Below are positions 19,345 to 59,734 of a stretch of DNA of 59,734 nucleotides, one piece after another. Within the stretch, counting starts at the first letter, position 1, and each line of letters starts with the position of its first letter. Source of the stretch: a bacterium (lineage in GTDB: Bacteria; Patescibacteriota; Microgenomatia; UBA1406; GWC2-37-13); the NCBI GenBank assembly GCA_021787635.1, contig JAJYLO010000001.1, positions 1 through 59,734 of the forward strand, written 5' to 3'. Position numbers and translations under genes: made by a program. The notes under the pieces were generated by a model. It was not told where the DNA came from. It saw only the letters and a program-made list of their open reading frames with translations, and searched no databases.

Positions 19345-22300
19345 TAATTAATGATCAGCCAATTAAATTGTATATTGTTTATCACCGGTTTATCAATAGT
19401 AATGATAAAGTATGGCTTATCGCTGACGATCTTTTGGCTGACCGTCAACGGCGGGGAGCCAGGCGTGGTGGGGGTAATGTAGATCAGGGAATCGGCCTTC
19501 ACACTACTATTATATATAAGTATCTCGGTGGAGTTCGCCGGCAAAATGCCGACACCCGCCGATTGTGACTTCGTCTCAATGGCCGGGGCATTGATCCCGT
19601 TCTGGACCAGATTATCAGGCGCGGCAATCACCGCCGCCGACGAGGTGGCGTCCATATATTTATTGCCAATTGCTAAATTGTTGATTGTTAAATTGTTGAA
19701 TTGAGCCGATCCCGAAGCATCAATAGATGCGACCGTGTCTCCCACCGGATTCTTGATCTGCAGCCCCTGGGCGATGATTTCGCCTTTGGTCGTGATTGTC
19801 CCGTCGCGGGCGATGACGACGCCGCCGTCAAACAAGGTGATCGTATTAAACGCCGACAGTTTCAAATCGGAGGCGAGGGAGAGAATGGAATTATTTTCAA
19901 TAAACGTCTGGCCGATAAGCATGGAACCGGCGACGGAAACGTTGTAAAGATTAGATTGGCCGGTGACGGTCAGGGAGTCGGATTTTAGATCTAAGATGGA
20001 AGATGGAGGATTGGAAGATGAAGAACTTCCATCTGTTATCTTCGATCCTCCACCTAATGTAATATTCTGGTAATAATTTGCATTCGGCAACGGCTGATTT
20101 TGAATTTTGGCGAGCAACGATTGGATATCGTTCACGTTCGATGATAATGTATCGAGCGACGACGATTGGGAAGCGACATTATTTTCCAACTGATTGATAT
20201 TTTCCGACCGGACATTTTGGGCGACAAGAGTGCCGGAAACAGTCGCCGATTGAGCAACGAGTGTCCCGGAAATGGTCGCATTTTGCGCAGAGAGCGTACC
20301 GCTGAATGAGGCATTGCCGGCAGCGTCAATACTGGCGACAGTGGCATTATTGAGGCCTCTAATGATAATTTTGGCAAGTTTGCCTTTATCGTTAGGGGGT
20401 AGGGAGTTGGGAGTAGGTTGTAGGTTAATCGTCAAATCTCCATTTTGTGGTGCAATTTCGTTCGTCTGTATTTTATTTAGTTGTGCCGAGCCGGTGGCGA
20501 CAATGTCTTTGGTTTCGGCAATCGGCGAAACGACGGATTGTGAACCGAGAACCGCCCGGATTCTGTTATCGATATAATCCTGAAGGCTTTTGCCGGCGAT
20601 AGTAATATTGCCGCTGGTGACATTGAGGCTGTCGGTAACGATATTTTGAGCATTGACCAACCCGGCCGTCAATTTGCCAATAACTGCTTGGGCGTAGGCG
20701 CCGATATCGTCGACGATAGTGCCCGTGTCAAACTTGACGGTATAACCGTTATTATTTAAATTCCCGTCATATACCAGCTGGGGCGTGCTGACGTTGCCGG
20801 AGGAATCGACGTTCAGCCGGCTCATGTCCGGATCGTTGATGGTCAGGCCGCCAACATCCGATGACGAGCGGGTATTTTTCCACTGGGCGTAGTCGAAGCG
20901 GGGCGCGGTCAGCCGGTAGCTGACGACGGTCGGCCGCGAGGCGTAAATAACCAATTGGAAATTGGCCGGGTCGACCGTATACCAAGTGCGGGCATTGGTG
21001 GTCGGCGTCAGGAGCGGAATCAGGTTTTGCATCGTATTGCGCAAATTGGTGACTTTGGCAAAAAGCCACAGGTCGGACGCTTTATCGGCATTATTGAAAT
21101 TGATGATATGGCGGTAGCCGACGCCGGCGACGTGCTCGTTGACGGCGACGGTGCCGGTCGTTTCTTCTTTGACGCCGGTCATTGACGGGTTATAAGTGGC
21201 GTATTTTTCGCCATTAATGACGTACGGCGGATCGATCGTGCCGGCGTCGATTTTGCCATCGCAGTTGGCGACGCCGGAAGAATAAGTGGTGTTGACGCAC
21301 AGGGTGGCACTGGGGGTAGCAGTGCTATTTATTATCAGCGTGCTGCCGGAGGCAGCAGTGATTGTCGGGCCGTTGGTCGGGCCGCCGGGGGTATTGTCTT
21401 CCAATATCATGTTCCAGTTGGTATCGGTGTTTTGGGCATATGAGTGTAACATGTTTATATAGCTCATGCCGGCCGGATCAAGATAGCGAGTATTGTCGGA
21501 ATTGTCGTAATACTTTTCAGCGTTGATACTGCCGCTGCCGACGTCCAATCTTTGTGTCGGGCTGGTTACGCCGATCCCCACATTACCGCTGACATAAAGT
21601 TCATTACTTTGTGGTAAGGCATTTGCCGGTAATGAGCCGATGGCGACGGAGCCGTTGACATCCAGTTTATCCAAGGGAGCGGTGGTGCCGATGCCTAAAT
21701 TACCGGTAATATCGCTATTGCCCGATACTTCGAGTTTATTGGCCGGCGCGGTCGTTCCAATGCCCACATTGCCGTTGTTTAAGACTGTCAGCCCCCTAGT
21801 CGTACCGTCGGCCGCCAGTGTGGAAAAGATATTGATGGGGGTAGCGGTAATCACCCACTGGTCATTTAAAGTATGGCCGGTTGTGGCTCCAAAAGTAATC
21901 GTTACTCCATTAGTCAGCGTCTGGGCCGATCCGGTGATGGCGACGCCTGTCGTCCATGATCCCGCGCCTTTTTGCCACTTGAAGGTATCCGGTGTCCCTG
22001 TCGCGTCGATGACGACGGTATAGGTCTGGGCAGTAGTATCGGTACCGGTATAAGTGCCGCCGGAAGTGGCATCATTTAAGCCGGTGCCGGTAAAGACGGC
22101 GCTGCCGATACTGCCCGATCCTTTGACATCCAATTTGTATGCCGGTGAAATGGTGCCGATGCCGACGTTGCCACTGCTATCTATCAACATCCGATACGCT
22201 GTTGCTGTACTGTCATAAATACCAAAAGCTCCGCTATTAGCTCCCAATGTACCAAGACTCTGTACTAACCAGTCCCGGGAAGCTTTAAGTTCCAAATTAG

Positions 22301-35374: not shown

Positions 35375-36115
35375 TTAATATGACGGTGTTGCCACAAAAT
35401 TGATAATCGTCTGATAGCTGCCTGCGGGTTGAGTATTACTGACGTTAACTTTATAGGTAATGGTCGACTGGCGGTTGGTACCGACCGTACTGCTGCTCAT
35501 AACAACGGCCGGCGAAGAAATGCTGGCAAACGGCCGGTAATAAGTGCTGTTGATAAAATCGGCCGGGATGTCGTTGCCGCTCATGTTGTATCCGAAACCA
35601 TAAGCCGTACCGGAACTCCAGACTTTGGCGGTTCCCGTATTACAGGTGTTGCTGCCGCCGTCGCAACTGGTGTCGGGGATAGTGGTTGTCGGATTACTTA
35701 AAAGTGCCATTGAGCTGTTTTCACCGGCTGTTACCTGATACTGGCCGGCGCCGCCATAATCGATCGTCAGTGTAGCATTGGCGGTGCTGGGAGTTTGGGC
35801 ACTCAAAGTGCCCAAGTTGATATTGGTATTGGATATGACGAAGCGAAAAGGGATAATGGAGTGAAGATATTGAAAACCGGCCAAAATATAGTAACCGGAG
35901 GAAGAAAAACTGCCGGCTGCCGTTTGACCGACCGTATCGGAAAGGGCATAGTTAGTTGAACTTTTATTGCCGGCTGCATCGCTGACGTTAGCCGACTCGA
36001 TCTTGTAGTCTGGTGAGTACATGCTTACCGCTTGGACCGGGGTATTTAATATGAAGTATTGAGTATAAAGTATGGGGAATACAACCAATCCAATATAAAA
36101 TACCAAATACCTCAT
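35375..36115 (-). CDS. Secreted surface protein with a WxL-like C-terminal motif (paralog of 27754..29202)
   Basis: Signal peptide, T/S/G/N-rich, ends GSYQTIINFVATPSY. Confidence 0.5.
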   Translation of the reverse strand: MRYLVFYIGLVVFPILYTQYFILNTPVQAVSMYSPDYKIESANVSDAAGNKSSTNYALSDTVGQTAAGSFSSSGYYILAGFQYLHSIIPFRFVISNTNINLGTLSAQTPSTANATLTIDYGGAGQYQVTAGENSSMALLSNPTTTIPDTSCDGGSNTCNTGTAKVWSSGTAYGFGYNMSGNDIPADFINSTYYRPFASISSPAVVMSSSTVGTNRQSTITYKVNVSNTQPAGSYQTIINFVATPSY

Positions 36116-36133
36116 ACTTTATACTTAATACTT
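36054..36133. repeat. 21-bp inverted repeat (1 mismatch) spanning the start codon and signal-peptide codons of gene 35375..36115
   Basis: aagtattgagtataaagtatg (36054-36074) against catactttatacttaatactt (36113-36133). The right arm contains the start codon (complement of 36113-36115). Confidence 0.8.
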
Positions 36134-36152
36134 AATGCTAATGATTAAATGA

Positions 36153-37043: not shown

Positions 37044-37625
37044 ATGGCAGAAGATCAGAATCAGACTGTGCCGGTTGCGCCAGAACCGCAGCCAACCCCC
37101 TCAACGGGTAAATGGTATGTTATTCATATCCAAACCGGCTATGAAAGCCGGGTCAAGCATGCGCTGGAGCAGCGGGTAAAAAGCCTTGGTGTTGAGGGCA
37201 AGATTTTTGACGTCGTTATTCCCACCCGGGAAGTGGTTGTTGTCAAAAAAGGCAAAAAGACTAAAGCGACGGAAAAAGTTTTTCCCGGCTATATCCTTAT
37301 TCAGATGATTCTTGATGACGATTCGTGGTTGGTGGTGCGGACGACCGAAGGTGTTACCGGTTTTGTCGGCGCCGGCCTTAAACCGACCCCGATTTCCGAA
37401 AAAGAAGTCGAGGCAATTATGAAGTTTGTTACCCAGGAACAGCCGAAATTCAAGACGAAATTTTCCGTGGGCGAAGCGGTCAAAATCACCGAAGGGCCGT
37501 TTGCCGACTTTTTGGGCACGATTGAAGGAATCGACGAGGAACGGGGGAAGGTTAAAGTACTGGTTTCGATTTTTGATAGGGAAACGCCGGTGGAGCTGGA
37601 TTTTTTACAAGTGGCGAAATTATAA
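37044..37625 (+). CDS. nusG: Transcription termination/antitermination factor NusG
   Basis: KWYVIHIQTGYESRVKHAL (NGN); FSVGEAVKITEGPFADFLGTIEGID..KVKVLVSIFDRETPVELDF (KOW). Confidence 0.95.
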   Translation: MAEDQNQTVPVAPEPQPTPSTGKWYVIHIQTGYESRVKHALEQRVKSLGVEGKIFDVVIPTREVVVVKKGKKTKATEKVFPGYILIQMILDDDSWLVVRTTEGVTGFVGAGLKPTPISEKEVEAIMKFVTQEQPKFKTKFSVGEAVKITEGPFADFLGTIEGIDEERGKVKVLVSIFDRETPVELDFLQVAKL

Positions 37626-37707
37626 TTTTCAATTTACAATTTTCAGTTTTTAAACGGTTTGAAAACTGATAATTGATTGAAAATTGAGAACTGAAAATTG
37701 AAAATTT
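37625..37707. repeat. Heptamer-built hairpin filling the nusG-rplK intergenic region
   Basis: Left arm aattttc aatttac aattttc agttttt. Loop aaacggt. Right arm ttgaaaa ctgataa ttgattg aaaattg agaactg aaaattg aaaattt. Confidence 0.8.
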
Positions 37708-37714
37708 AATAGAT

Positions 37715-38137
37715 ATGGTAAAAAAAGTAAAAACAATCATTAAGCTCAATCTCCCCGCCGGGGAGGCGACTCCGGCGCCGCCGGTTGGTCCGGCTTTGGG
37801 CCAGCATGGCGTGCCGATAATGGACTTTATTAAGGAATATAATGCCCGGACGGCGAAATTAAAAGGGCAGATTATTCCGGCGGTGATTACCGTTTATGAG
37901 GACCGGTCGTTTACTTTTATTACTAAACTGCCGCCGGTCGCCGCCATGATTAAGAAAAAAATATCGTTGCAAAAAGGTTCGGGCCGTCCCAATACGGAAA
38001 AAGTTGGCAAATTAACCAAGGCGCAGGTCGAGGAAATTGCCAAGGAAAAACTGGCCGATTTGAACACGGATAACATTGAGGCGGCGATGAAAGTCGTTGC
38101 CGGAACGGCGAGATCGATGGGGATTGAAACGGAGTAA
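37715..38137 (+). CDS. rplK: 50S ribosomal protein L11
   Basis: [35 protein letters not shown]. Confidence 0.95.
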
Positions 38138-38164
38138 TTTTTAATTTTAAATTTTTAATTTTAA

Positions 38165-38962
38165 ATGGGAAAAGTCAAAGCACGATTACTTGGAGACGTT
38201 GAAGTCGAGAAGAAACAGAAAGAGGAAGCGAAAACTAAAGCCGCGGAAAAAAAGATGAAAAAAACACAGAAGGAAGAAACGCCAAAAGACGCAAAACAAG
38301 TTGGGGTTGGATTTTCCAGCCCGAAAAAGGAAGAAAAAAAATCCGCTCCGCCTTCGCTTAAGCTTCGGCGGACAAGGGGTAAAAAATACCAGGCGGCTAA
38401 AACATTAGTCGATAAAAATAAGTTTTATCCGTTAGACGAAGCGATAGCTTTGCTGAAAAAAATGGCACTGGCCGCTTTTGACGAAGCAGTTGAGCTTCAC
38501 CTTAATGTTAATGAAACCGGCTTGAAAGGCGAAGTGGAATTGCCTCACAGCACGGGTAAAACCGTGCGCATTGCCGTCGTCAACGACGCGGTCCTTGCCG
38601 ATATCGAAAAAGGAAAAATCGATTTTGATATTTTGATTACTCATCCGTCTTTTATGCCGAAGCTGGCGCGGTTTGCTCGAGTCTTAGGTCCGAAAGGCCT
38701 GATGCCTAATCCCAAAGCGGGCACGATTTCCACCAATCCCGATGAAGTGGTTAAAAAATTTACTAAAGGGACATTGCGTTGGAAAACCGAACCGAAATTT
38801 CCACTTGTCCACCAGATGATCGGCCGAAAATCGTTTGACGAAAAAGAATTAGCGGCCAATGCCGAAAAATTCATTCAGTCAGTTGGGCCTAATCGTATCA
38901 CCAAGGCATTCATCAAAACCACGATGAGTCCGGCGGTGCAGTTGGAAATTAATAAGGAATAA
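38165..38962 (+). CDS. rplA: 50S ribosomal protein L1 with a ~70-aa Lys/Glu-rich N-terminal extension
   Basis: The canonical L1 core starts at ..RGKKYQAAKTLVDKNKFYPLDEAIALLKKM. The preceding 70 aa are low-complexity and contain the hairpin element at 38347-38372. Confidence 0.9.
   Translation: MGKVKARLLGDVEVEKKQKEEAKTKAAEKKMKKTQKEETPKDAKQVGVGFSSPKKEEKKSAPPSLKLRRTRGKKYQAAKTLVDKNKFYPLDEAIALLKKMALAAFDEAVELHLNVNETGLKGEVELPHSTGKTVRIAVVNDAVLADIEKGKIDFDILITHPSFMPKLARFARVLGPKGLMPNPKAGTISTNPDEVVKKFTKGTLRWKTEPKFPLVHQMIGRKSFDEKELAANAEKFIQSVGPNRITKAFIKTTMSPAVQLEINKE
38347..38372. repeat. Hairpin element tccgcc-N14-ggcgga, in frame in the rplA N-terminal extension
   Basis: tccgccttcgcttaagcttcggcgga encodes PPSLKLRRT. 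Homologous copy at 47933-47958. Confidence 0.7.
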
Positions 38963-39040: not shown

Positions 39041-39072
39041 AATAACTCTTCAACGATCGTATAATAGTTATT
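39041..39072. promoter_or_regulatory. 32-bp imperfect palindrome ATAACT-N5-ACGATCGT-N5-AGTTAT, copy 1
   Basis: aataactcttca acgatcgt ataatagttatt. 9 of 12 arm positions are complementary. Lies 3' of rplA and upstream of the PaaX-like gene. Confidence 0.6.
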
Positions 39073-39082
39073 TAGTATTGAT

Positions 39083-39114
39083 TATAACTTGACAACGATC
39101 GTGGATGAGTTATC
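39083..39114. promoter_or_regulatory. Palindromic element, copy 2, overlapping the promoter of the PaaX-like gene
   Basis: tataacttgaca acgatcgt ggatgagttatc. The -35 TTGACA lies in the left arm and the -10-like TATCAT in the right arm. Confidence 0.6.
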
Positions 39115-39116
39115 AT
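39089..39116 (+). promoter_or_regulatory. Promoter TTGACA-16-TATCAT, 6 nt before ATG 39123
   Basis: ttgaca acgatcgtggatgagt tatcat aaaatt ATG. Confidence 0.5.
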
Positions 39117-39122
39117 AAAATT

Positions 39123-39713
39123 ATGGTTGAAAAAAAACGGAAGTTGAAATCAGGACAACTGTACTGGGAAATTTTGAAAGTGATCGGGATGGGAATCGCG
39201 GCCAGTAGCGGCAATCCTCTTCGGCCGACGCTGCCGATTATGGTTAGGGAAATTAGCCGGTTGCTTCGGGAAAATACCCAGGCCGATATCGGCGAGGACT
39301 CGATCCGCAAAAGTTTGCGTCACCTGGAGAAAAAAGAAGTAATTAACCTGGTTGAGCGTGGTGATAAAGCGTACGTCTATCTCAAAGACGTCGGCAACTT
39401 TACCATTGCCGAATATTCTATTAAGACACTACTTGATCTGAAAAAGAAAAATAAACAGTGGAACGGCAAATGGTTTTTAGTTTTTTTTGACGTGCCGGAA
39501 ATTCAGCGCAAGAAGCGCGATATTCTCCGGAAATATCTGACTAAGATTGGTTTTTACCGGTACCAAAAAAGCATTTATCTTTTTCCTTACGAATGTGAAA
39601 AAGAAGTGGTTTATCTTAAAAAGATTGTCGAAGGAGCGAAATATATGAAATACATTATCGCGGACAAAATTGAAGATGAGGCCGAAGTGAAGGCCTATTT
39701 TCACCTGTCGTAA
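39123..39713 (+). CDS. PaaX-like winged-helix transcriptional regulator
   Basis: NGKWFLVFFDVPEIQRKKRDILRKYLTKIGFYRYQKSIYLFPYE. The track ORF begins at 39105; the ATG at 39123 sits 6 nt after a -10-like box, which looks leaderless. Confidence 0.6.
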   Translation: MVEKKRKLKSGQLYWEILKVIGMGIAASSGNPLRPTLPIMVREISRLLRENTQADIGEDSIRKSLRHLEKKEVINLVERGDKAYVYLKDVGNFTIAEYSIKTLLDLKKKNKQWNGKWFLVFFDVPEIQRKKRDILRKYLTKIGFYRYQKSIYLFPYECEKEVVYLKKIVEGAKYMKYIIADKIEDEAEVKAYFHLS

Positions 39714-39744
39714 ATAACTCTGTTACGATCGTAGCAAAGCTATT
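39713..39744. promoter_or_regulatory. Palindromic element, copy 3
   Basis: aataactctgtt acgatcgt agcaaagctatt. Starts at the stop codon of the PaaX-like gene and lies upstream of the GNAT gene. Confidence 0.55.
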
Positions 39745-39765
39745 TATGTTATAATACGCTTTCAT

Positions 39766-40152
39766 ATGAAGGGAAAAATCCGGACAGCAAATAAGCGTGA
39801 TATTGCAGCTAAACATCACCGGGTCCTGCCCCGGTCAAAAAAAGAATTGCTAAAAGTACTCGGCGCTTTTTTTGTATTTGAAGCGGACGGAAAAATTATT
39901 GGGTGCTGCGCACTGGAAATCTATAGTTCACGAATTGCCGAAATTCGCTCACTCGTCATTGATAAAGATTACCAAAATAATGGCATCGGAACCATTTTGA
40001 TCAAAGCCTGCCTGACGCGCGCCGAAAAGAAGAAGATACAAAAAATTCTGTCGGTGACCGATAAGGTCGATGTCTTCCGCAAATGCGGGTTTGATACGTG
40101 CCTAAACGATCAATATGCGATGTTTGCCAATCCTAAGAAGATCAAGCTCTAA
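39766..40152 (+). CDS. GNAT-family N-acetyltransferase
   Basis: IAEIRSLVIDKDYQNNGIGTILIKA (acetyl-CoA binding Q/RxxGxG motif). Confidence 0.8.
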   Translation: MKGKIRTANKRDIAAKHHRVLPRSKKELLKVLGAFFVFEADGKIIGCCALEIYSSRIAEIRSLVIDKDYQNNGIGTILIKACLTRAEKKKIQKILSVTDKVDVFRKCGFDTCLNDQYAMFANPKKIKL

Positions 40153-40738
40153 ACCTTTTTTTCGCTTCATCGACAATCAGATCGGCCGCATCTTTGATGC
40201 TTAAATTCGGCCCGGTGCGAATGACCAGATCATAGTGATGGGCTTTGCGCGGATCATGTTTATAGACGTTTTTCACAAAATCAATCCGCCGTTCGTCGGA
40301 TTGCCGGATATCGCGGATGGCTTCGCTCCGGACCATGTTTTCGTATTCCATCAGCCATTTTATCCGCTGCTCCATTTCGCAAATTATCCGCACTTTCAAC
40401 GAGTTTGGAAAAAGAAAGGTGGCTCCCCGGCCGACAATAATCGCATAGCCGCGCTGGCCAATTGTCGATAACGCTTTAACTAGGTTGCGGTGATAAACGG
40501 AAAAGTTCAGATAGCGTTCGCCAAAAAAATCAGCAAGCAATTCATCGATGAACGGGATATTGCTTTCATCGATTTCCTTAATTATTCCCCGGGCCAGTTT
40601 CGTTTGTTTGGCAATGTCGTCGATTATTTCCTTGTTAAAAACTTTCCATGGTGATCCCAATTGTTTTTCCACCAGATTGGCAATTGGCCGTCCGCCCGAC
40701 CCTCTTTCGCGTGATAAAGTAATAATTGGCTTTTTCAT
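40142..40738 (-). CDS. Cytidylate kinase-like family protein
   Basis: MKKPIITLSRERGSGGRPIANLVEKQLG is typical of the Cytidylate_kin2 N-terminus. Confidence 0.7.
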   Translation of the reverse strand: MKKPIITLSRERGSGGRPIANLVEKQLGSPWKVFNKEIIDDIAKQTKLARGIIKEIDESNIPFIDELLADFFGERYLNFSVYHRNLVKALSTIGQRGYAIIVGRGATFLFPNSLKVRIICEMEQRIKWLMEYENMVRSEAIRDIRQSDERRIDFVKNVYKHDPRKAHHYDLVIRTGPNLSIKDAADLIVDEAKKRFRA

Positions 40739-40774
40739 GGTATTATAAATATAATATCATTTATTAAAAAGTCA

Positions 40775-41284
40775 ATGGTCGATCAAGGCGGAGAATTTTG
40801 GCGGTATCTTTCCCAAAACCAAAAAGATTTGATTATTGAAGGGCAATATCTCATAAGTGATATTATTAAAGACGACGCCTTGCATTTTAAGGATTATTCT
40901 TTCCTGGTTTTTCCTTTTGCCAAAGCTTATGAAGGGTTTTTGAAACAATTGTTTCGCGATATCGGTTTTATTTCCCGACTCGACTATATTTCCGACCATT
41001 TGCGGTTGGGAAAGTTGATGTCGCCAGAGCTTATTAACCGTCTCGGTGACCGATCGCTTTATCAAAAAATCGAGACGGCGGCCGATAAAGCGTTAGCGGA
41101 TGAAATTTGGAATACCTGGAAAACCGGCCGAAACCAGATTTTTCATTATTTCCCCCACAATCTGAAAGCGATCGGTTTTAGCGAGGCGGAAGAGATAGTA
41201 AATCAGATTACTCGGGTGATGAAAACGGCGTTTGAAAGACTGCGACTGGCGCAAACTGTAAAAAAGCTGGAAAGGTATGTTTGA
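40775..41284 (+). CDS. Hypothetical protein
   Basis: 169-aa ORF with coding-like composition. No family recognised. Confidence 0.5.
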   Translation: MVDQGGEFWRYLSQNQKDLIIEGQYLISDIIKDDALHFKDYSFLVFPFAKAYEGFLKQLFRDIGFISRLDYISDHLRLGKLMSPELINRLGDRSLYQKIETAADKALADEIWNTWKTGRNQIFHYFPHNLKAIGFSEAEEIVNQITRVMKTAFERLRLAQTVKKLERYV

Positions 41285-41291
41285 ATCACAA

Positions 41292-41323
41292 AACAGCTCC
41301 TCAACGATCGTAGCGAAGTTATT
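41292..41323. promoter_or_regulatory. Palindromic element, copy 4
   Basis: aacagctcctca acgatcgt agcgaagttatt. Lies between convergent genes 40775..41284 and tkt. Confidence 0.5.
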
Positions 41324-41329
41324 AGATTG

Positions 41330-42283
41330 TTACAATAGTGTTTTTACTGTTGTGACAATTGCCGTCGCGTCGATTTCTTCGTAGGCGAGCAATTCTTCCG
41401 GCGTGCCGGAACGGGGAATTTTACGGACGTAAAGATGGATAAAATTAATTAATGATAGATCATGGATGATAGATGACAGAATTGCTTCGCCGAGGCCGCC
41501 GGCCGGATAATGATCTTCGACGACGACGACGTTTTTTATTGTTTTAATCAGGTATTTAATTGTTGTTACATCGAGCGGTTTGACCGAGTAGCAATCCATG
41601 ACGACCGTTTCGATATTTTCTTCCGCTAGTTGTTTTTGTGCTTTCAGGGCTTCATGAACTGTGATTCCTGCAGCCATAATTAATACTTTTGATTTATGGT
41701 TTAGAATTTTCGATTTATGAATTTTACTGCTGCCGATTTTGAATTCCTCCTGATTTTTATAGATAACGGGAGTTTTGTTGCGGGTCACACGCAAATAAAA
41801 CAATCCCGGCTCTTTGACCATGATACGGGTTAATTTAGCGGCCGATACGGCATCACTCGGATACAAGACTACGCTGTTCAATATACTGCGGAACATAGCA
41901 ATATCCTCGAGTCCCATTTGTGAAGGTCCGTCAGCCCCGATAGCGACGCCGGCATGGGAGCCGACGAATTTCAGATCAGGTTTCGAATATTGCGCCATTC
42001 TAATCTGGTCGAAAGCTCTTGTCCAGAAGGCGGCAAATGTCGCCATAACGGGGATAAAGCCCATTTTGGATAGACCTAGGCCGACCGAGGCTATATTCTG
42101 CTCGGCGATAAACATTTCCAGGAAACGCTCCGGAAACAGTTTTTGAAATTTATCGGTATAAGTGGAATTAGACGTTTCCCCATCAAGGACCAAAAGCGAT
42201 GACAGTTTTTTGCCGACCTCAACCAGAGCGTCGCCAAAGGCTTCACGAGTGGCGACAAGATCATTTATTTTATAATTTGACAT
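41330..42283 (-). CDS. tkt: Transketolase, C-terminal (pyrimidine-binding + C-terminal domain) subunit
   Basis: ATREAFGDALVEVGK..FIAEQNIASVGLGLS..GSHAGVAIGADGPSQMGLEDIAMFR. Confidence 0.9.
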   Translation of the reverse strand: MSNYKINDLVATREAFGDALVEVGKKLSSLLVLDGETSNSTYTDKFQKLFPERFLEMFIAEQNIASVGLGLSKMGFIPVMATFAAFWTRAFDQIRMAQYSKPDLKFVGSHAGVAIGADGPSQMGLEDIAMFRSILNSVVLYPSDAVSAAKLTRIMVKEPGLFYLRVTRNKTPVIYKNQEEFKIGSSKIHKSKILNHKSKVLIMAAGITVHEALKAQKQLAEENIETVVMDCYSVKPLDVTTIKYLIKTIKNVVVVEDHYPAGGLGEAILSSIIHDLSLINFIHLYVRKIPRSGTPEELLAYEEIDATAIVTTVKTLL

Positions 42284-43088
42284 AAAAGGATTCTAATTTT
42301 TTATTGATTTTGTTAAGCTCCAACTTTTCCGCCGGAATGACTTTGCCGTGCCAGCCGTTCTGGTTTTCGACCGCCGGGACGCCTTTACCTTTGACGGTGC
42401 GGGCGATAAGCATTACTGGCAGTTTTAAGGTTTTAAAGTTCAAAAGCTTGAAAGTTGATATTACTTGTTGGAGATCGTTGCCATTATCAATAATAGATGT
42501 TTTCCATCCAAATGCCTCAATCCGTTTCCGATATGTTGTTAAATCCCACCCGAGCATTGTTTCACCCCGTTGGCCCAGGCGGTTGACGTCGATAATACCG
42601 ATTAAATTGTTTAATTTATAGTAAGAAGCAATTGCCATCGCCTCCCAGACCTGACCTTCGGCCATTTCCGAATCACCGAGAAGGACGTATACTTTGGCTG
42701 ATCTATCATCTTTTATTTTCATACCCAACGCCATTCCCACACCAATGGATAATCCCTGACCAAGGCTGCCTGTTGCCACATCAACATATTTAAATCTTGG
42801 GGTCGGGTGGCCTTCAAGCGGCGAATCGAATTGGCGCAATGACATTAATTCTGCCGTCGTTATCAGTCCGGCTTGATGGTAAAGGGCATAAAGTAGAGGA
42901 GCGGCGTGGCCCTTGGAAAAAATCAGCTTGTCGACCTCTGGCCGAAAATAATTGAAAAAGAGCGTTGTCGTCAGTTCGACGGCCGATAAGCAAGAAGTCG
43001 GATGGCCGGAGCCGGCAGTGGTAGTTGAGGTGAGAATGTCGCGCCGAATTAGTTGACAAAATTCCGTTAACTTTGTAAAGTTAAACAT
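42270..43088 (-). CDS. tkt: Transketolase, N-terminal (thiamine-diphosphate-binding) subunit
   Basis: AGSGHPTSCLSAVEL..SKGHAAPLLYA..GSLGQGLSIGVGMA..LLGDSEMAEGQVWEA. Confidence 0.9.
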   Translation of the reverse strand: MFNFTKLTEFCQLIRRDILTSTTTAGSGHPTSCLSAVELTTTLFFNYFRPEVDKLIFSKGHAAPLLYALYHQAGLITTAELMSLRQFDSPLEGHPTPRFKYVDVATGSLGQGLSIGVGMALGMKIKDDRSAKVYVLLGDSEMAEGQVWEAMAIASYYKLNNLIGIIDVNRLGQRGETMLGWDLTTYRKRIEAFGWKTSIIDNGNDLQQVISTFKLLNFKTLKLPVMLIARTVKGKGVPAVENQNGWHGKVIPAEKLELNKINKKLESFYVKL

Positions 43089-43111
43089 AATATCATATTA
43101 ACAAATATTTT

Positions 43112-43885
43112 ATGGGGTCATTACCGAATTCAGAAATTGTTTTATTAAAAAACACTTCCCATCCAGACGCGGTTAAAAACTACATGAAAGCAGGCTTAAA
43201 TGAGACAATCGCGCGCCAGCAGGCTTATAAAGACTTAAGAACAGGACGGCTGGAAAGGGATATAAAAAACAAAAACCAAGAATTGGATAAGGCTAGTGAA
43301 ATGGTAAAAAAATATCAGGTATTAAGCATGATCGATACGCTCACCGGATTGCCCAACCGACGGGCACTGGATGGTGACCCCAACCTTAATCCGCCTTACA
43401 CTGGTGAACTGATCAGAATCTTTAGTCACGCGAAAAGATACAGTGAGCCGGTTACTGCCATAATGCTTGATATAGATTTATTCAAGCGAATTAACGATAC
43501 ATATGGTCATAAGATCGGTGATGAAGTGCTTAGGGTGGTTGGTAAGATAATTTTAGGGAGTATCCGCGGTGGTGATTTTGCCTGCCGCTATGGCGGAGAA
43601 GAATTCATAATGCTTCTGCCGAAAACCAATCATGAAGAAGCAGTAAACCTGGCGGAAAGACTTAGACTGAAGGTAGCCAAAGCGGCTGAATTGGAAAGAT
43701 ATCCGGTTACAGTCAGCATCGGTGCTGCTGATTACCCCAATTTTCATCACCCGGAAGTCGCTGACTCGGCGGCATTGGTCGGTGCGGCTGACAAATGCCT
43801 TTATGAGGCAAAAAAAGAAGGCCGCAATCGGATAGTGTCTATTAACGGGACTCGGCCGAAAGTATATCCCATTAATCCTACATAA
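43112..43885 (+). CDS. GGDEF-domain diguanylate cyclase (no recognisable sensor domain)
   Basis: DTLTGLPNRRAL..DIDLFKRINDTYGHKIGDEVL..RYGGEEFIMLLP..ADKCLYEAKKEGRNR. Confidence 0.85.
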   Translation: MGSLPNSEIVLLKNTSHPDAVKNYMKAGLNETIARQQAYKDLRTGRLERDIKNKNQELDKASEMVKKYQVLSMIDTLTGLPNRRALDGDPNLNPPYTGELIRIFSHAKRYSEPVTAIMLDIDLFKRINDTYGHKIGDEVLRVVGKIILGSIRGGDFACRYGGEEFIMLLPKTNHEEAVNLAERLRLKVAKAAELERYPVTVSIGAADYPNFHHPEVADSAALVGAADKCLYEAKKEGRNRIVSINGTRPKVYPINPT

Positions 43886-43909
43886 AATAACTACAGGATA
43901 AAATACCTC

Positions 43910-43938
43910 TTGACAAATAAAATAATATACGCTACAGT
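43910..43938 (+). promoter_or_regulatory. Promoter TTGACA-17-TACAGT, 8 nt before ATG 43947
   Basis: cctcttgaca aataaaataatatacgc tacagt gatattat ATG. Confidence 0.55.
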
Positions 43939-43946
43939 GATATTAT

Positions 43947-44111
43947 ATGGAAAAATATTATAAGATAGAAAATTCTCAGATTAAACCCAATTTAAATATT
44001 AATTTGCTTTATTCTTTAATCTTAGTTCTTACTTCTAATCCCGGCCAGCTGGATGTTAAAAGTTCTCATAAATCTTATGGTAAGGCAATGCCCTCTCTTG
44101 CCGGAAACTAA
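43947..44111 (+). CDS. Possible 54-aa small membrane protein (below the ORF-track cut-off)
   Basis: My translation is MEKYYKIENSQIKPNLNINLLYSLILVLTSNPGQLDVKSSHKSYGKAMPSLAGN*. The ATG sits 8 nt after a TTGACA-17-TACAGT promoter. A terminator-like hairpin lies downstream. Confidence 0.3.
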   Translation: MEKYYKIENSQIKPNLNINLLYSLILVLTSNPGQLDVKSSHKSYGKAMPSLAGN

Positions 44112-44170
44112 TCTGCCGGAAGGCATGTGGAATGGCTAAGAGAGAAATATTTACGTTCGTTATTATTTAT

Positions 44171-44216
44171 GCGCAGCCGAGTCCAAAGACATTTCTGCGG
44201 GCTCGGCGCGTTTTTT
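44171..44216 (+). terminator. Intrinsic-terminator-like hairpin + T-run
   Basis: cgcAgccgag ..20 nt.. ctcggcgcg ttttt. Confidence 0.45.
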
Positions 44217-44226
44217 GTTGTTGAAT

Positions 44227-44258
44227 ATTAACTCTTCAACGATCGTATAAGAGCTATA
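44227..44258. promoter_or_regulatory. Palindromic element, copy 5
   Basis: attaactcttca acgatcgt ataagagctata. 23 of 24 nt identical to copy 1 over aactcttcaacgatcgtataaKag. Lies just 3' of acs. Confidence 0.55.
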
Positions 44259-47999: not shown

Positions 48000-49194
48000 A
48001 TGGATAAAATTTTAGGTATTTTTCTTTTAATTCAAAAAATTTATCGGTGGCAATTGCTTCGCGGATATTTTTCATCAGATCGGAATAAAATTGGATGTTG
48101 TGGGCGGTGGCAAGATAATAAGCACGCGGGTCTTTAAGAAAAAATAAATTGTTTAATTGTTGAATTGTTAAATTATTGGAGCACATTTGGCAGCGGCAAT
48201 TCTTATCAGCCACTTCATTGACGGTTTTATATTTACGAACGTTAATTTTGCCTTTGGTGGTGTATAGGATGCGATGGCGGGCTTCGCGCGTCGGGATGAC
48301 GCAATCGAAAAGATCGACACCCCGAACGACTGATTCGAAAATATCGCGTACTTGGCCAATGCCCAATAAATGTTTCGGCTTTTCTTCCGGTAAAAGGGGA
48401 ATCGTCCAGTCAAGCACGTCCTTGACTTCATCTTTGGTTGTTCCCAAAGCGCCGCCGATACCAAAACCCAATACCAGCTGTTTGGCCATAAATTTGGCTG
48501 ATTCACGTCGCAGATCTTCGAACATGCCTCCTTGAACGATGGCGAAAAGAGCCTGCTGTCGGTTAGATGATGGAGAGGATTGTCGATCATTTATGATCGA
48601 TGATCTATAATCTATTGCGCTAAGGCATCTTTCCAGCCACCGGTGCGTTCGTTCCATTGCTTTTTTTGTGTATTCATGGCTGTTTAGCGGCGACGTGCAT
48701 TCATCGAAAGCAAAAATAATATCGGCGCCCAATCGCTTTTGGATGGCAATCGATAATTCAGGAGTAAACATAATTAGTTTCTCGTCATAACTAAACATGA
48801 CTCCCTTTTCGGTGATTTGCAGCAAATTATCATGATCGCGGGTGATTGTCGGTTCTTTCGAGGCGATTTTACCGACCTGGTGGATTTTACCAAAGCCCAA
48901 AGAAAATACCTGAAAGCCGCCGCTGTCGGTGGCAGTAACATTTTTATATTCCATATAATCATTCACTCCGCCGGCCTGTTCAATCGCCGGTACCAATCCT
49001 TTGGTAAATGTATGGAAGGTGTTCGTGATGGTGTATTGAATTGTCAATTTATTAATTGACTTTTTGGGAATTGCCCGAATTTCCGCATCGGTCGCGACAA
49101 ACGCCAACTCCGGCGTCAGCAACTTGCCATGCGGTGTCTTAAAAACTCCCGTCCGGGCATTTTTATTTTTATGGAGAATATTGAATTCAAACAT
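47998..49194 (-). CDS. tgt: tRNA-guanine transglycosylase (queuine tRNA-ribosyltransferase)
   Basis: MFEFNILHKNKNARTGVFKTPHGKLLTPELAFVAT..; DSGGFQVFSL; LFAIVQGG; LGIG; DCVIPTREARH; CRCQMC. The start is set at ATG 49194; the longer track ORF would overlap nadE. Confidence 0.9.
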   Translation of the reverse strand: MFEFNILHKNKNARTGVFKTPHGKLLTPELAFVATDAEIRAIPKKSINKLTIQYTITNTFHTFTKGLVPAIEQAGGVNDYMEYKNVTATDSGGFQVFSLGFGKIHQVGKIASKEPTITRDHDNLLQITEKGVMFSYDEKLIMFTPELSIAIQKRLGADIIFAFDECTSPLNSHEYTKKAMERTHRWLERCLSAIDYRSSIINDRQSSPSSNRQQALFAIVQGGMFEDLRRESAKFMAKQLVLGFGIGGALGTTKDEVKDVLDWTIPLLPEEKPKHLLGIGQVRDIFESVVRGVDLFDCVIPTREARHRILYTTKGKINVRKYKTVNEVADKNCRCQMCSNNLTIQQLNNLFFLKDPRAYYLATAHNIQFYSDLMKNIREAIATDKFFELKEKYLKFYP

Positions 49195-50107: not shown

Positions 50108-50614
50108 ATGCAAAAATACAGCACCGGTTTGCTCATCGGTCGCTTCCAGCCTTTCCATAACGGTCATTTGTGGCTGATCAAGCATGCATTGAAATTTGTT
50201 GATAAATTAGTAATCGGTATCGGTAGTGCCAATGTCCAGGATAAAAATAACCCGCTGGGTTGTGAGGAAAGAAAAAAAATGGCGGAAGAAGTCATTGTCC
50301 ACGAAAATTTAAGCGACCAGATCAGTAAAATCGTTCCTCTCGATGATTTTCATGATGACGAAAAATGGTTTCAAAATACATTGCGGCAAACCGGGCCGAT
50401 CGATGCCGTTATCGGTAATAACGAGTGGGTGAATGACATTTTCGAAAAACAAGGATATCCGATTTTGCGGGTGGGGTATTATAAAAGATACATACTGGAG
50501 GGAGAGAAGATACGGCAATTAATAAAAGAAAATAAACCATGGGAAAACCGAATTCCCAATTATTTATTACGGATTACTAATTACGAATTAAAAAAGAAAA
50601 TCCGCAATCCGTAA
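50108..50614 (+). CDS. Nicotinamide-nucleotide adenylyltransferase, archaeal (NadM) type
   Basis: GLLIGRFQPFHNGHLWLIKHAL..VIGIGSAN. The C-terminal 15 aa are encoded by a hairpin repeat. Confidence 0.8.
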   Translation: MQKYSTGLLIGRFQPFHNGHLWLIKHALKFVDKLVIGIGSANVQDKNNPLGCEERKKMAEEVIVHENLSDQISKIVPLDDFHDDEKWFQNTLRQTGPIDAVIGNNEWVNDIFEKQGYPILRVGYYKRYILEGEKIRQLIKENKPWENRIPNYLLRITNYELKKKIRNP

Positions 50615-50636
50615 TTCGCAATCGGAAAATTGCAAT

Positions 50637-51639: not shown

Positions 51640-54315
51640 ATGTCGGCTAAATATCAACCGCAAGAATTCGAAAAAAAATGGATTGAACACTGGGATAAAA
51701 ATAAAACGAATAAAACCATCAATCCGGACAAAAATCGCCAAAAGGAATATATACTAGCAATGTTTCCGTATCCGTCCGGTGCCGGTCTGCATGTTGGTCA
51801 CGTCCGTGTATATACCGGTACAGACGTTTTAGCCCGTTACTTTCGAATGAATGGTCGCGCAGTTATGAATCCGATGGGTTGGGATGCTTTTGGTCTGCCG
51901 GCGGAAAATGCTGCCATTAAGGCGAAAAAAAATCCGATGGATATGGTGCCGGAGCATATTGTTAACTTTAAAAAGCAGATGAAAATGTTGGGGTTCTCCA
52001 ATGACTGGGACAAGGAATTGGCAACGACTGACCCCAACTACTACAAATGGACCCAGTGGTTATTTATCCAATTTTACAAAATGGGGCTATTATATAAAAA
52101 AAATACCCCGATTAATTTCTGCCCGGTTTGTAAAACCGGTTTGGCTGAAGAGGAAGTGCTACCCAATGGTACGCATGAACGGTGTGGTAACAAAATCGAA
52201 AAACGGGAATTGCCGCAGTGGATTTTTAAAATCACGGATTACGCGGATCGTTTACTGGCGGATTTAGACAGATTAGATTGGCCAAAGGGGATTTTGGAAA
52301 TGCAACGGAACTGGATCGGACGTAAAGAGGGTATGAATATTACGTACGATGTTGTCGATAATAAGGATGTTCGATACCGCGTTTCTCACTCCAGTGGGTC
52401 TCCTAGCCACTTCGTGGCAGACATCCCAAGCCGTTCAAAACGGATATCTTCGCTTCCGATTATCGACAAAATAACATGTTTCACCACTCGACCAGATACT
52501 AATTTTGGCGCCACATTTATCGTGTTAGCACCTGAACACCCGTTCGTCGCTTCGCTCCTAAATTCAAAAATCAAAATTCAAAAATCAAAATGGGGAGAAA
52601 TAAAACAATATGTTGAAAAGGCAAAAGCAAAAACGGAAATGGAGCGGGAAGCAGAAAGCCGGAAAAAAACCGGCGTATCAACCGGTTTTTACGCCGTCAA
52701 TAACTTGACCGGTAAATTAATGCCGGTGTGGGTATCCGATTTTGTCCTGATGGGTTTTGGCACCGGCGCCGTCGTCGGTGTTCCCGGTCATGATATGCGC
52801 GACTTTGAATTTGCCAGGGAATTCGGTCTGGAAATAATCCGGGTGGTTGTCGGCCGCGATGGCGATAAATCACCAATTACCAAAAAGGAGCAGATTCAGG
52901 AAAAAGAAGGATCGATGATAAATTCGGAATTCCTTAACGGATTGGATATTCATGAAGCCACAAAGAAAATTATGGATTATTTGGAAGAAAAAGGTTGGGG
53001 AAAACGGCAGGTGACTTACCATTTGCGCGACTGGATTTTTTCGCGGCAGCGATATTGGGGTGAGCCGATCCCGATGATTTTTTGCGAAAAATGCGCAAAA
53101 AATCAAGTTCAAAGTTCAAAATTCAAAGTTCAAAATGGGATGGCTGGATGGTATCCGGTTCCTGAAGACCAACTACCAGTTAAGCTACCTTACGTCAAAA
53201 GTTATGAGCCAACGGGAACAGGGGAGTCGCCGTTATCTGCCATTAAAGATTGGATGAATACAACTTGTCCGAAGTGCGGCGCGCCGGCGAAAAGAGAGAC
53301 GGACACGATGCCGAATTGGGCGGGAAGCTGCTGGTATTTTATCGCATTTGCGTTTTGGGGAGAAAATAGCAATTCGGAAACGGAAAGAATAGCTTTTGCT
53401 TCATTGCCGCCATCAATTGGAAATTGGAAATTAAAAATTGAAAATTCGGGTAACCGTTGGTTACCCGTTGATTGGTATTTGGGCGGCGCCGAACATGCCG
53501 TTTTACATTTATTATATTCCCGTTTCTGGGTGAAAGCCCTGTATGATTTAAAATTGCTGGATTTCAAAGAGCCGTTTGCGCGCTTAAGGAATCTGGGAAT
53601 GATTATTGCTGCCGACCACCGGAAAATGAGCAAGTCTTTCGGTAATGTCATTAATCCCGATGATGTCGCCGCCGAATTCGGTGTCGACGCGCTGCGGATT
53701 TATGAAATGTTCATGGCCCCTTTCAGCCAGGAAATCGCCTGGTCGGATACGGCACTGCAGGGATCGTACCGGTTTATAAAAAGAGTGTGGGCGATGTATC
53801 AACAATATGGTACCATTGCGAGGAGCGAAGCGACGAAGCAAAATGACAATCTTGTTGTTAAATTAAACAAAACCATTGCCAAAGTGACCGCCGATATTCC
53901 ATTGACCAAATTCAATACCGCAGTGGCGGCGATGATGGAATTTTTGAACGAGTGGGAAAACAATTATTTGTCTGACGATAACGCAAAAAAATTTCTGCAA
54001 ATTTTGGCGCCGTTTGCTCCTTTCACCACGGAAGAAATCTGGCATGAAATTTTCGGCGAAAAAGAGTCGATTCATTTATCGGCCTGGCCGAAAGCGAAAG
54101 AAACCACTGTTGTCGAAGAAGAAATAACGATTCCGGTGCAGGTGAACGGGAAAGTGAGGGCAGTAATAAAAATTCAAAATTCAAAATTCAAAATTCAAAG
54201 TGATGTTGAAAAACAAGCGATACAAGACGAGAAAGTAAAGAAATATGTGGAGGGGAAAAAGTATAAAGCGATTTACGTACCGGGAAAAATCCTTAACTTT
54301 GTATTAACAAGCTAA
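51640..54315 (+). CDS. leuS: Leucyl-tRNA synthetase (with several low-complexity in-frame insertions)
   Basis: MFPYPSGAGLHVGHVRVY (HIGH-type), TTRPDTNFGATF, KMSKSFGN. The start is set at ATG 51640 (MSAKYQPQEFEKKW). Confidence 0.95.
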   Translation: MSAKYQPQEFEKKWIEHWDKNKTNKTINPDKNRQKEYILAMFPYPSGAGLHVGHVRVYTGTDVLARYFRMNGRAVMNPMGWDAFGLPAENAAIKAKKNPMDMVPEHIVNFKKQMKMLGFSNDWDKELATTDPNYYKWTQWLFIQFYKMGLLYKKNTPINFCPVCKTGLAEEEVLPNGTHERCGNKIEKRELPQWIFKITDYADRLLADLDRLDWPKGILEMQRNWIGRKEGMNITYDVVDNKDVRYRVSHSSGSPSHFVADIPSRSKRISSLPIIDKITCFTTRPDTNFGATFIVLAPEHPFVASLLNSKIKIQKSKWGEIKQYVEKAKAKTEMEREAESRKKTGVSTGFYAVNNLTGKLMPVWVSDFVLMGFGTGAVVGVPGHDMRDFEFAREFGLEIIRVVVGRDGDKSPITKKEQIQEKEGSMINSEFLNGLDIHEATKKIMDYLEEKGWGKRQVTYHLRDWIFSRQRYWGEPIPMIFCEKCAKNQVQSSKFKVQNGMAGWYPVPEDQLPVKLPYVKSYEPTGTGESPLSAIKDWMNTTCPKCGAPAKRETDTMPNWAGSCWYFIAFAFWGENSNSETERIAFASLPPSIGNWKLKIENSGNRWLPVDWYLGGAEHAVLHLLYSRFWVKALYDLKLLDFKEPFARLRNLGMIIAADHRKMSKSFGNVINPDDVAAEFGVDALRIYEMFMAPFSQEIAWSDTALQGSYRFIKRVWAMYQQYGTIARSEATKQNDNLVVKLNKTIAKVTADIPLTKFNTAVAAMMEFLNEWENNYLSDDNAKKFLQILAPFAPFTTEEIWHEIFGEKESIHLSAWPKAKETTVVEEEITIPVQVNGKVRAVIKIQNSKFKIQSDVEKQAIQDEKVKKYVEGKKYKAIYVPGKILNFVLTS
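52561..52590. repeat. Heptamer tract in leuS (aattcaa aaatcaa x2)
   Basis: aattcaaaaatcaaaattcaaaaatcaaaa encodes NSKIKIQKSK. Confidence 0.8.
53104..53136. repeat. Heptamer tract in leuS (AARTTC-A x4-5)
   Basis: caagttc aaagttc aaaattc aaagttc aaaat encodes QVQSSKFKVQN. Confidence 0.8.
53415..53449. repeat. Heptamer tract in leuS (AATTGRA x5)
   Basis: aattgga aattgga aattaaa aattgaa aattcgg encodes IGNWKLKIENSG. Confidence 0.8.
53813..53845. repeat. Second copy of the 'cattgcgaggagcgaagcgacgaagcaa' element, in frame in leuS
   Basis: ccattgcgaggagcgaagcgacgaagcaaaatg encodes TIARSEATKQN. About 80% identical to 29537-29570 by eye. Confidence 0.65.
54169..54196. repeat. Four perfect tandem heptamers AAAATTC in leuS
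   Basis: aaaattc x4 encodes KIQNSKFKIQ. Confidence 0.9.

Positions 54316-58348: not shown

Positions 58349-59734
<1,386 letters not shown>

Follow-up and report, generated by a model that had tools for sequence, protein, structure and literature searches.

The leuS gene of an uncultured patescibacterium raises the question of how an essential gene can hold several tandem arrays of a 7-nt unit, which is not a multiple of three, and still be read in frame. The gene is located at positions 51640–54315 (+) in a stretch of 59,734 nt, here called the window, from contig JAJYLO010000001.1 (GenBank assembly GCA_021787635.1; Microgenomatia, GWC2-37-13). The first-pass annotation of the window listed at least six short repeat elements in leuS, four of them heptanucleotide tracts. 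It proposed that they are tolerated either by strong selection on copy number or by an insertion mechanism that preserves the frame. The comparison reported here indicates that the four tracts are probably arrays of the heptanucleotide simple sequence repeat (SSR) type, formed and homogenised in situ by 7-nt misalignment and filtered by selection.

The leuS coding sequence starts from ATG at 51640 and encodes 891 aa. The leucyl-tRNA synthetase (LeuRS) signatures HVGH, KMSKS, and TTRPDT are all readable in its translation, and phmmer matches it to the LeuRS of Thermus thermophilus and Escherichia coli, with E-values from 1e-204 (T. thermophilus) to 1e-180. An AlphaFold2 (AF2) model based on a multiple sequence alignment (MSA) of 118 sequences has a mean predicted local distance difference test (pLDDT) score of 87. 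An earlier model from a 19-sequence MSA reached a pLDDT of 54 and was discarded. Foldseek aligns the model to solved LeuRS structures of E. coli and T. thermophilus (5omw, 4aq7, and 2bte) with template modelling (TM) scores of 0.82–0.85. By sequence, fold, and motifs, the product is a bacterial class Ia leucyl-tRNA synthetase, of the bacterial type lacking the leucine-specific domain. leuS is an essential, single-copy gene. The LeuRS relatives belong to Patescibacteria, in the Microgenomates/Roizmanbacteria group. Two sets of sequences were used for comparison: 81 related Patescibacteria/Microgenomates loci of 1.3 Mb in total (L001–L081) and 80 metagenome loci (L082–L161). The nearest relative of the window leuS is the syntenic L081, with 88% nucleotide identity.

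All four heptamer tracts are present where the first-pass annotation had read them, in frame and translated on the forward strand. Tract 1 (52560–52591) is composed of ~4.4 copies of AAATTCA/AAAATCA with a 14-nt super-period and a 100% match, and encodes LNSKIKIQKSK within residues 306–318. Tract 2 (53104–53136, residues 488–500) is AAGTTCA/AAATTCA ×4.3. It is contained in a 51-nt segment (53095–53145) encoding AKNQVQSSKFKVQNGMA, which follows the CxxC of the zinc module. Tract 3 (53415–53447, residues 592–603) is AATTGGA/AATTGAA ×4.6 (AAATTGG AAATTGG AAATTAA AAATTGA AAATTC) and encodes SIGNWKLKIENS. Tract 4 (54169–54199, in the segment 54165–54202; residues 843–855) is a perfect array of AAAATTC ×4.4, and encodes IKIQNSKFKIQS in the C-terminal tRNA-binding domain. 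Based on Tandem Repeats Finder and lag-7 scans, the tracts contain 4.3–4.6 head-to-tail copies with 87–100% match. Read in one shared register, each of the four is a variant of AAATTNA, and they form a single family in the output of the repeat finder. Tracts 1 and 2 are 86% identical to each other over 35 nt, including the 3′ flank AAAATGGG.

These tracts are no peculiarity of leuS, as the excess of period 7 extends over the window and the clade. A lag-autocorrelation scan requiring 17 of 21 lag matches, with a detection floor of ~28 nt, gives 13 tracts of period 7 in the window, where shuffled sequences give 0.05. Other periods from 4 to 18 give 0–1 tracts, except for the 14-nt harmonic. The 81 related loci contain 181 period-7 tracts, compared with 9 for period 6, 29 for period 8, and 19 for period 9 (0–29 among the other periods from 4 to 12). 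Their distribution is patchy, and ~35 of the 81 loci have none. The 194 tracts in total represent 95 distinct units, and their lengths are continuous from the ~28-nt floor, with a median of 34 nt. Long open reading frames (ORFs) have 1.24 tracts per 10 kb and the remaining DNA has 3.12, a 2.5-fold lower density in the ORFs; as coding DNA makes up 90% of the total, long ORFs nevertheless contain 152 of the 194 tracts (78%). In 129 of these 152 tracts, it is the A-rich strand that is the sense strand. Avoidance of stop codons was considered as the sole cause of this orientation and rejected, since the bias is still 26 versus 4 for units that are stop-free both ways.

LeuRS in this clade varies in length from 808 to more than 1000 aa, and the variation is confined mostly to a few sites. 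Of 47 complete leuS orthologs, 21 carry strong heptamer tracts, 49 in all, and these cluster at nine hot spots. Variable columns account for 20% of LeuRS and for 87% of the tract residues. The units differ by lineage at one and the same hot spot. At site iii, which corresponds to residues 485–503 of the window LeuRS, the units AAGTTCA, AAATATC, AAAGTCA, AAATTGR, AAATTTA, AAATGTC, AATCAGT, and ATTCCAA are seen.

The peptides encoded by the tracts were first thought to have no counterpart in LeuRS and to be lineage-specific insertions. The alignment with T. thermophilus LeuRS partly agrees with this: tracts 1, 2, and 3 are at gaps of 6, 17, and 13 aa, while the gap at tract 4 is 2 aa. Against L081, only tract 2 is a clean presence/absence difference, and tracts 1 and 4 are length-neutral. 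The hot spot of tract 1 is 23 aa in length, equal to the median of 23 aa in tract-free orthologs. Tract 4 is not an insertion, because its segment is 23–25 aa in all 47 orthologs. At site i, 23 of the 47 orthologs have a minimal 23-aa form. In L004, L013, and L071, (AAATATC)×5 stands at this site in place of the native KYKVKNSDEIIT, with identical length, and it starts at the native proto-repeat AATATCAAGTATAAAGT. Tract 3 overlays in part the native PWSNESMKQWL of a minimal 24-aa form and belongs to a 19-aa expansion. It is kept as SIENWKLKIENSGN in many orthologs and is missing from the minimal 24-aa forms. The arrays of tract 1, tract 4, and site i overwrite native variable sequences of equal length instead of being inserted.

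Changes of units are also seen between lineages. L057 contains TTCAGAA ×4 at the site of tract 4, independent of the array in the window, where the same register reads TTCAAAA. L023 has xCAAAAG ×5 and L002 has AAATTTC ×3. A substitution specific to one lineage is thus seen in every unit, a pattern that indicates concerted evolution or re-seeding. Length changes are seen as well. Between LeuRS pairs of at least 80% identity, there are 7-aa indels that equal three heptamer units (FKIQNSK, ISNIKYQ, QISKIKD, and RIQNSEF). The earlier statement that any slippage would cause a frameshift is therefore wrong for three-unit steps.

The reading frame is kept throughout. Among 82 leuS orthologs, no frameshift was found at any array. 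One apparent case in L040 was rejected, as it is a run of N at a scaffold gap. Every indel between the window leuS and that of L081 is a multiple of 3. Selection thus acts on the frame, which partly agrees with one half of the original proposal, selection on copy number. The other half, a frame-preserving insertion mechanism, is not needed, and purifying selection with length-neutral homogenisation accounts for the data. Removal of the tracts by splicing or translational bypass was considered and rejected: indel lengths are always multiples of 3 and no stop codon is found on the sense strand of the tracts, constraints that would be needless if the tracts were removed.

Frameshift switches classically consist of units such as these 7-nt ones within an ORF, and tract 4 is a perfect 4.4-copy array, so that phase-variable contingency repeats come to mind. 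However, leuS is essential and single-copy, none of the 82 orthologs is frameshifted at an array, and the arrays are short and mostly imperfect. Assembly or sequencing artefacts would be another origin. A stretch of 8.7 kb identical to the window is present in a second public assembly, GCA_027331625.1, and the same tracts are also found in orthologs from independent samples; an assembly artefact is therefore excluded. The reading of the tracts as contingency repeats or artefacts is largely refuted, and we consider it very improbable.

The favoured process would begin with a proto-repeat that exists by chance in coding or spacer DNA rich in A. Out-of-register misalignment, by 7 or 14 nt, of the nascent or repaired strand would then spread the repeat and homogenise it in situ. 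A change in one unit would be copied to its neighbours, often with zero net length change and sometimes in three-unit steps (21 nt, 7 aa). The arrays in leuS are transcribed and translated together with the rest of LeuRS, and in genes purifying selection would retain those satisfying four conditions. The reading frame is kept; the unit is stop-free in all three frames of the sense strand; the sense strand is A-rich, resulting in hydrophilic peptides rich in K, N, Q, S, and I; and the protein segment is already variable, with about nine such sites in LeuRS. The molecular step, either misalignment or conversion, and the reason for the 7-nt register are what we infer.

Several observations weigh against such an in situ origin. 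The misalignment or conversion step is deduced from sequence patterns, and the model does not account for why 7 nt, or 8 nt in L070, is preferred. The excess of indels at 7, 14, and 21 aa is only modest and is based on MSA gaps, counted as unique events. The spectrum was recounted in this way because the raw pairwise gap spectrum was pseudo-replicated. Identity within arrays exceeds the identity of positionally orthologous units at only one of three sites, which is partly due to mis-registration of L068. Because this numerical result is mixed, the argument for concerted change relies on the specific examples above. Published heptamer SSRs are mainly intergenic, and the known class does not predict the heavy occupancy of ORFs seen here. 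Tract 3, which is conserved and predicted to be helical, may now be under selection at the protein level rather than merely tolerated. The indel at tract 2 is clean, and its length of 51 nt is divisible by neither 7 nor 21; no proto-repeat is present in L081, where the site is empty; and on the tree the tract occurs here and there among relatives that lack it. This pattern fits loss, recombination, or insertion as well as an in situ origin.

Tract 2 is also evidence for an alternative, in which the tracts are small mobile elements that insert in frame like Rickettsia palindromic elements (RPEs), as pre-formed cassettes of ~30–50 nt moved by transposition or recombination. At site iii, 17-aa cassettes with common ends appear sporadically among empty-site relatives, as expected for such elements. 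The history of this site offers another explanation. A large sister clade in Roizmanbacteria has a conserved, non-repetitive insertion of ~35 aa here, CAK-KISWWDTEEGKTFQKTYQNISKVD...EMAGW, which sits within the zinc module of LeuRS, separating its two Cys pairs (P0078, P0099, and P0112, for example) and may be a lineage-specific structural element. The 17-aa version of the window keeps its ends, AKNQ...(E)MAGW, with the heptamer array as the core. Cores of the same length with other heptamer units are seen in P0005, P0028, P0053, and P0090. By this alignment, the conserved ends of the segment are what remains of the older non-repeat insertion, from which the cassettes descend, and not the termini of an element. 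In P0007, the array of the window is interrupted by a 15-aa element. This element, the similarity of tracts 1 and 2 including their 3′ flank, and a genuine dispersed palindromic element in leuS (53814–53841), with others at hot spots of orthologs, are in favour of mobile elements.

The heptamer tracts themselves do not behave as such elements. The diversity of 95 units in 194 tracts leaves no conserved dispersed element among them. Folding compared with shuffled sequences revealed no hairpin potential in tracts 1 and 2 (z-scores of +1.6 and +2.2), and the 51-nt indel of tract 2 has no target-site duplication against L081. In addition, insertion cannot yield length-neutral overlays of native sequences. 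A composite element, consisting of a GC-rich head, TCGCTTCGC, and a heptamer tail, was also considered. The head motif is found within 20 nt of 13 of the 194 tracts, always immediately upstream, where fewer than one is expected. All 13 cases are at only two orthologous leuS sites, at one of which the motif is native sequence coding for the conserved RFA, and the composite element was rejected. In-frame insertion of mobile elements is an improbable origin for the heptamer tracts.

True insertions of this kind nevertheless seem to exist in leuS beside the arrays. The GC-rich element of the first-pass annotation was found at 53814–53841 (+). It is a degenerate copy of a palindromic element, cattgcgaggagcgaagcgacgaagcaa, encoding IARSEATKQ in frame. 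Its family shows the pattern (GTC)ATTGCGAG-[GCGAAGC-type mini-hairpin]-GAAGCAAT(C), and is dispersed and abundant in related genomes, with members such as L040:2464 GTCATTGCGAGTCACGAAGTGACGAAGCAATC, L014:4812, and many GTCATT... hairpins. The leuS copy itself folds weakly. L081 lacks the element and has an unrelated sequence at the site. The 17-nt core of the element, AGGAGCGAAGCGACGAA, has an exact inverted copy, the GC-rich string TTCGTCGCTTCGCTCCT at 52543–52559 (−), which encodes FVASLL and adjoins tract 1 (2 matches, 0.13 expected). The junction of this string with tract 1 is kept in L003, L006, L018, L023, L042, and L081. A seventh segment, absent from the earlier list, is a 30-nt indel at 53365–53394 (+) against L081. 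It encodes NSNSETERIA, is flanked on both sides by a direct repeat of AATAGC, and has a pLDDT of 67–74 in the AF2 model. It is probably the remnant of a small palindromic element that is complete in L001 and L002 (QFLSQR...SEKIAF). The segments at 53814–53841 and 53365–53394 are RPE-like in-frame insertions, a class distinct from the heptamer arrays.

Small hairpins of the GTCATT...AATC family are dispersed across L001–L081, for example at L040:2464, L023:21093, and L014:4812, in forms such as GTCATTCCCGCGAAGGCGGGAATCCAG and GTCATTCTGGGGAGCGAAGCGACTCCAGAATC. Families of hairpin elements are translated in frame at LeuRS hot spots of orthologs, as the peptides VIPTKAGIQ, RHSG...PES, and QFLSQR...SEKI.

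The remaining segment had been described as a stretch of ~90 nt immediately before TTRPDT. It is encoded at 52371–52463 (+), at the junction of the catalytic core and the editing domain, as RYRVSHSSGSPSHFVADIPSRSKRISSLPII (RYRVS...LPII), although it is six residues away from the motif instead of directly adjoining it. This variable loop insertion corresponds to a 30-aa gap against T. thermophilus LeuRS, and its residues 248–261 have a pLDDT below 50 in the AF2 model, which is true of no other segment of at least three residues. Homologous inserts are present in L047, L014, and L001, the minimal form is seen in 23 of the 47 orthologs, and L081 has an unrelated sequence at the site. The segment shows no repeat or hairpin character (z-score of −1.6), and no dispersed copies were found. 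Five of the six listed elements are thus demonstrably of the repeat type, the 90-nt segment being the exception, and the six fall into at least three different classes.

The location of the tracts in the protein is relevant to another alternative, that the arrays are selected for function. They might encode flexible Lys/Asn/Gln-rich surface segments of benefit to LeuRS, such as in contacts with tRNA, or serve as nucleic-acid signals, such as periodic sites for S23p or cold-shock proteins, RNA-processing sites, or regulatory sites. In the AF2 model, tract 1 is an editing-domain loop between helices 301–307 and 315–329 (pLDDT > 90) and tract 2 is a coil (pLDDT ~64). Tract 3 is part of the helix 593–607 (pLDDT ~90), and tract 4 forms the end of the strand 838–846 and a turn in the C-terminal domain (pLDDT 84–91). 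In this model, the peptides encoded by heptamers are not uniformly disordered, and some are predicted to be structured. The confident predicted helix of tract 3, common to many lineages as SIENWKLKIENSGN, may have been recruited by the protein. Tract 4 lies in the C-terminal domain of LeuRS, a domain seen to bind tRNA in solved structures of the complex. At the nucleotide level, L081 matches tract 1 with its flank at 100%, against the 88% background. Tract 3 differs from L081 by two substitutions, and tract 4 is of equal length in L081, where the array is degenerate.

Signals in nucleic acids could be supported by the inverted array pairs between genes, which form strong hairpins in operon spacers, by the ~11-fold enrichment of arrays beside S23p-like genes, and by the report that Bacillus subtilis CspB binds heptamer repeats with one protein per heptamer (PMC4679880). 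However, the in-gene tracts are unstructured as single strands. The units, and hence the peptides, vary freely among lineages at one site, and about half of the orthologs, very close ones included, have no array at a given site. Depletion in ORFs relative to spacers and avoidance of conserved columns are the mark of tolerated, not selected, sequences. Selection for function is unlikely as the general explanation of the arrays.

The likeness to published repeats supports placing the leuS tracts in a known class. Heptanucleotide units are the commonest among long SSRs in many bacteria, with ~four units preferred, inverted pairs known, and slippage proposed as the origin (Mrazek 2007, as presented in PMC4692102 and PMC4679880). 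Examples are GGGNATC in Xanthomonas and Nostoc (PMC4692102) and TAACTGA in Beggiatoaceae, Cyanobacteria, and Bacteroidetes (PMC4679880). The arrays described here share with this class of long SSRs, to which the cyanobacterial short tandemly repeated repetitive (STRR) heptamers belong, the tandem 7-nt units, genome-wide period-7 excess, ~4 copies, many arrays per genome, inverted pairs capable of forming hairpins, patchy phylogenetic spread, and a proposed slippage origin. They differ in several respects. In the published cases, one or a few units dominate each genome, and the arrays are mostly found between genes or are under-represented in ORFs, whereas here 95 A/T-rich units are seen and 78% of the tracts are in ORFs. 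The arrays here are translated, even in an essential aminoacyl-tRNA synthetase, and often overwrite the native sequence length-neutrally. A literature search found no report of heptamer repeats in Patescibacteria (Candidate Phyla Radiation, CPR). What is new is the CPR host, together with the massive presence of translated arrays in coding sequences, an essential synthetase among them, the many different units, and the overwriting without change of length.

Two other systems are similar in part. RPEs and intragenic miniature inverted-repeat transposable elements (PMC10969869) are also selfish or neutral repeat DNA tolerated in frame in housekeeping genes, at sites compatible with the fold. RPEs are ~150 bp, conserved, and palindromic, and form few families with a conserved peptide each, while the heptamer tracts are ~30 nt, non-palindromic, and composed of many unrelated units, and at least some of them arise by conversion of native sequence, not by insertion. 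The tandem repeats of Borgs (PMC9879509) resemble the heptamer arrays in being A-rich, in their local independent origins and fast evolution, in their presence in both spacers and ORFs, and in selection that keeps ORFs intact. Borg repeats create disordered protein regions, and their unit lengths in ORFs are all divisible by three, resulting in perfect amino-acid repeats (PMC9879509). The 7-nt unit instead rotates the frame, so that the peptide period is 7 aa and only length changes of 0 or 3 units are viable; besides, some heptamer-coded segments are predicted to be structured. Borg repeats could be regarded as a functional analogue by comparison.

Heptamer arrays are also associated with genes for S23p, the 23S-rRNA intervening sequence (IVS) protein family (PF05635, bAvd-like). 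The ORF at 18138–19328 (−) of the window encodes an N-terminal PF05635 domain, and its start codon is within a heptamer array. The longest array of the window, CATCTTC/CATCTCT ×11 at 18886–18964 (−), encodes the linker that fuses this domain in frame to a type IV pilin-like protein with the motif FTLLELTIVIALL, and is the inverted partner of the array at 19312–19345 (−). The region 18138–19345 (−) resembles a cassette of the IVS type that was inserted, away from any rRNA, at the 5′ end of a pilin gene. The window and the 81 loci contain four PF05635 genes, and each of them has inverted short-period arrays on its two sides: window 18954–19328, L023:15385–15852, and L070:15600–16110 and 17380–17900. 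The period is 7 in the window and L023, and 8 in L070, which is the only related locus where period-8 arrays are dominant.

The association extends to the 80 metagenome loci. Arrays within 120 nt of PF05635 genes have a density of 39.4 per 10 kb, compared with 3.6 on the remainder of these contigs. Period 7 accounts for 69 of the 88 arrays. A cassette with inverted arms is taken here as a PF05635 ORF with mutually reverse-complementary short-period arrays within ~120 nt on its two sides. Of 71 metagenome cassettes, 31 have matching arms, which are inverted in 28, whereas only 1 of 102 controls does; period 7 is seen in 19 of these 31 arm pairs. Cassettes with inverted heptamer arms are present in CPR bacteria and diverse metagenomic lineages. 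Some arms are GGGGACT/CCCCAGT, which we take to be the cyanobacterial STRR1 unit.

A precedent is the IVS in the 23S rRNA of Coxiella burnetii, which has 2–3 tandem heptamers just upstream of the S23p ORF, at the base of a stem processed by RNase III (PMC4990558). In the window, L023, and many metagenome loci, genes of this family are likewise bracketed by heptamer arrays. Unlike the Coxiella IVS, the present cassettes lie outside rRNA genes, and they have longer arms (4–11 units or more) of many different units. The comparison concerns the PF05635 cassettes and not the leuS tracts. A literature search found no paper on a general association of S23p with heptamer arrays beyond the Coxiella IVS. 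That the arrays are mechanistically tied to the S23p four-helix-bundle family (PF05635, bAvd-like), and are not just debris of slippage, is possible but doubtful. Whether the association has any bearing on how the coding tracts arose is a matter of speculation.

Other arrays of the window are found in several ORFs besides leuS (those for a TPR protein, a Peptidase_S74-domain protein, a 1524-aa repeat protein, and TGT), in C-terminal tails, and in spacers. An inverted pair in the nusG-rplK spacer (37623–37709) forms a strong hairpin (ΔG −18.1, z-score −5.8), and the next spacer, rplK-rplA, is filled with TAATTTT ×4.6 (38133–38167). Another inverted pair, AGTATNR/AATACTT (36046–36142), forms a hairpin at a gene boundary (z-score −3.7). 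The hairpins of the two inverted pairs are possibly terminators. Two short arrays, ATTACGA ×3.6 and AATCCGC ×3.6 (50566–50623, +), encode the C-terminal tail of a cytidylyltransferase-like gene and extend into the spacer.

Repeats of other types are also present in the window. Period-8 arrays of AATTGTTR, one direct-repeat family, are inside ORFs at 14331–14367, 19668–19706, and 48134–48178. A 29-nt palindromic repeat, TAACTCTTCAACGATCGTATAATAGTTAT, with CGATCG at the centre, has five copies in 39043–44257 and is separate from both the arrays and the GTCATT hairpins. The regions 16835–17884 and 21544–22737 contain ~11 copies of a 45–57-nt coding repeat common to two neighbouring large genes, one encoding 637 aa with a Peptidase_S74 chaperone domain and the other 1524 aa for which Pfam gave no hit. 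At the end of the window (59327–59734) is a collagen-like gene of 9- and 27-nt repeats. Their repeats suggest that the products of these three genes are cell-surface or fibre proteins.

If the tie between heptamer arrays and S23p is true, the S23p protein or the machinery that mobilises or processes the cassettes would recognise or generate 7-nt-periodic DNA or RNA. The flood of heptamer arrays in particular lineages, including those arrays that reach into essential genes such as leuS, would thereby be explained. The tie would also be the first functional handle on two old orphans, the STRR-type repeats and the S23p proteins. The bracketing of S23p genes by arrays across many lineages is a testable lead on both the heptameric STRR repeats and the 23S-IVS protein family.

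For the leuS tracts, an origin by in situ misalignment and selection would mean that a mutational process with a 7-nt register can keep rewriting variable surface segments of essential, conserved enzymes while the gene remains intact, here in an uncultured lineage. Because the 7-nt unit rotates through all three frames, the arrays could be considered as a natural experiment on which peptides a protein loop tolerates. For annotation, such segments rich in K, N, Q, S, and I would be derived from repeats and would not be acquired domains. The process would thus provide a concrete route for the origin and turnover of many lineage-specific "insertions" in CPR proteins.

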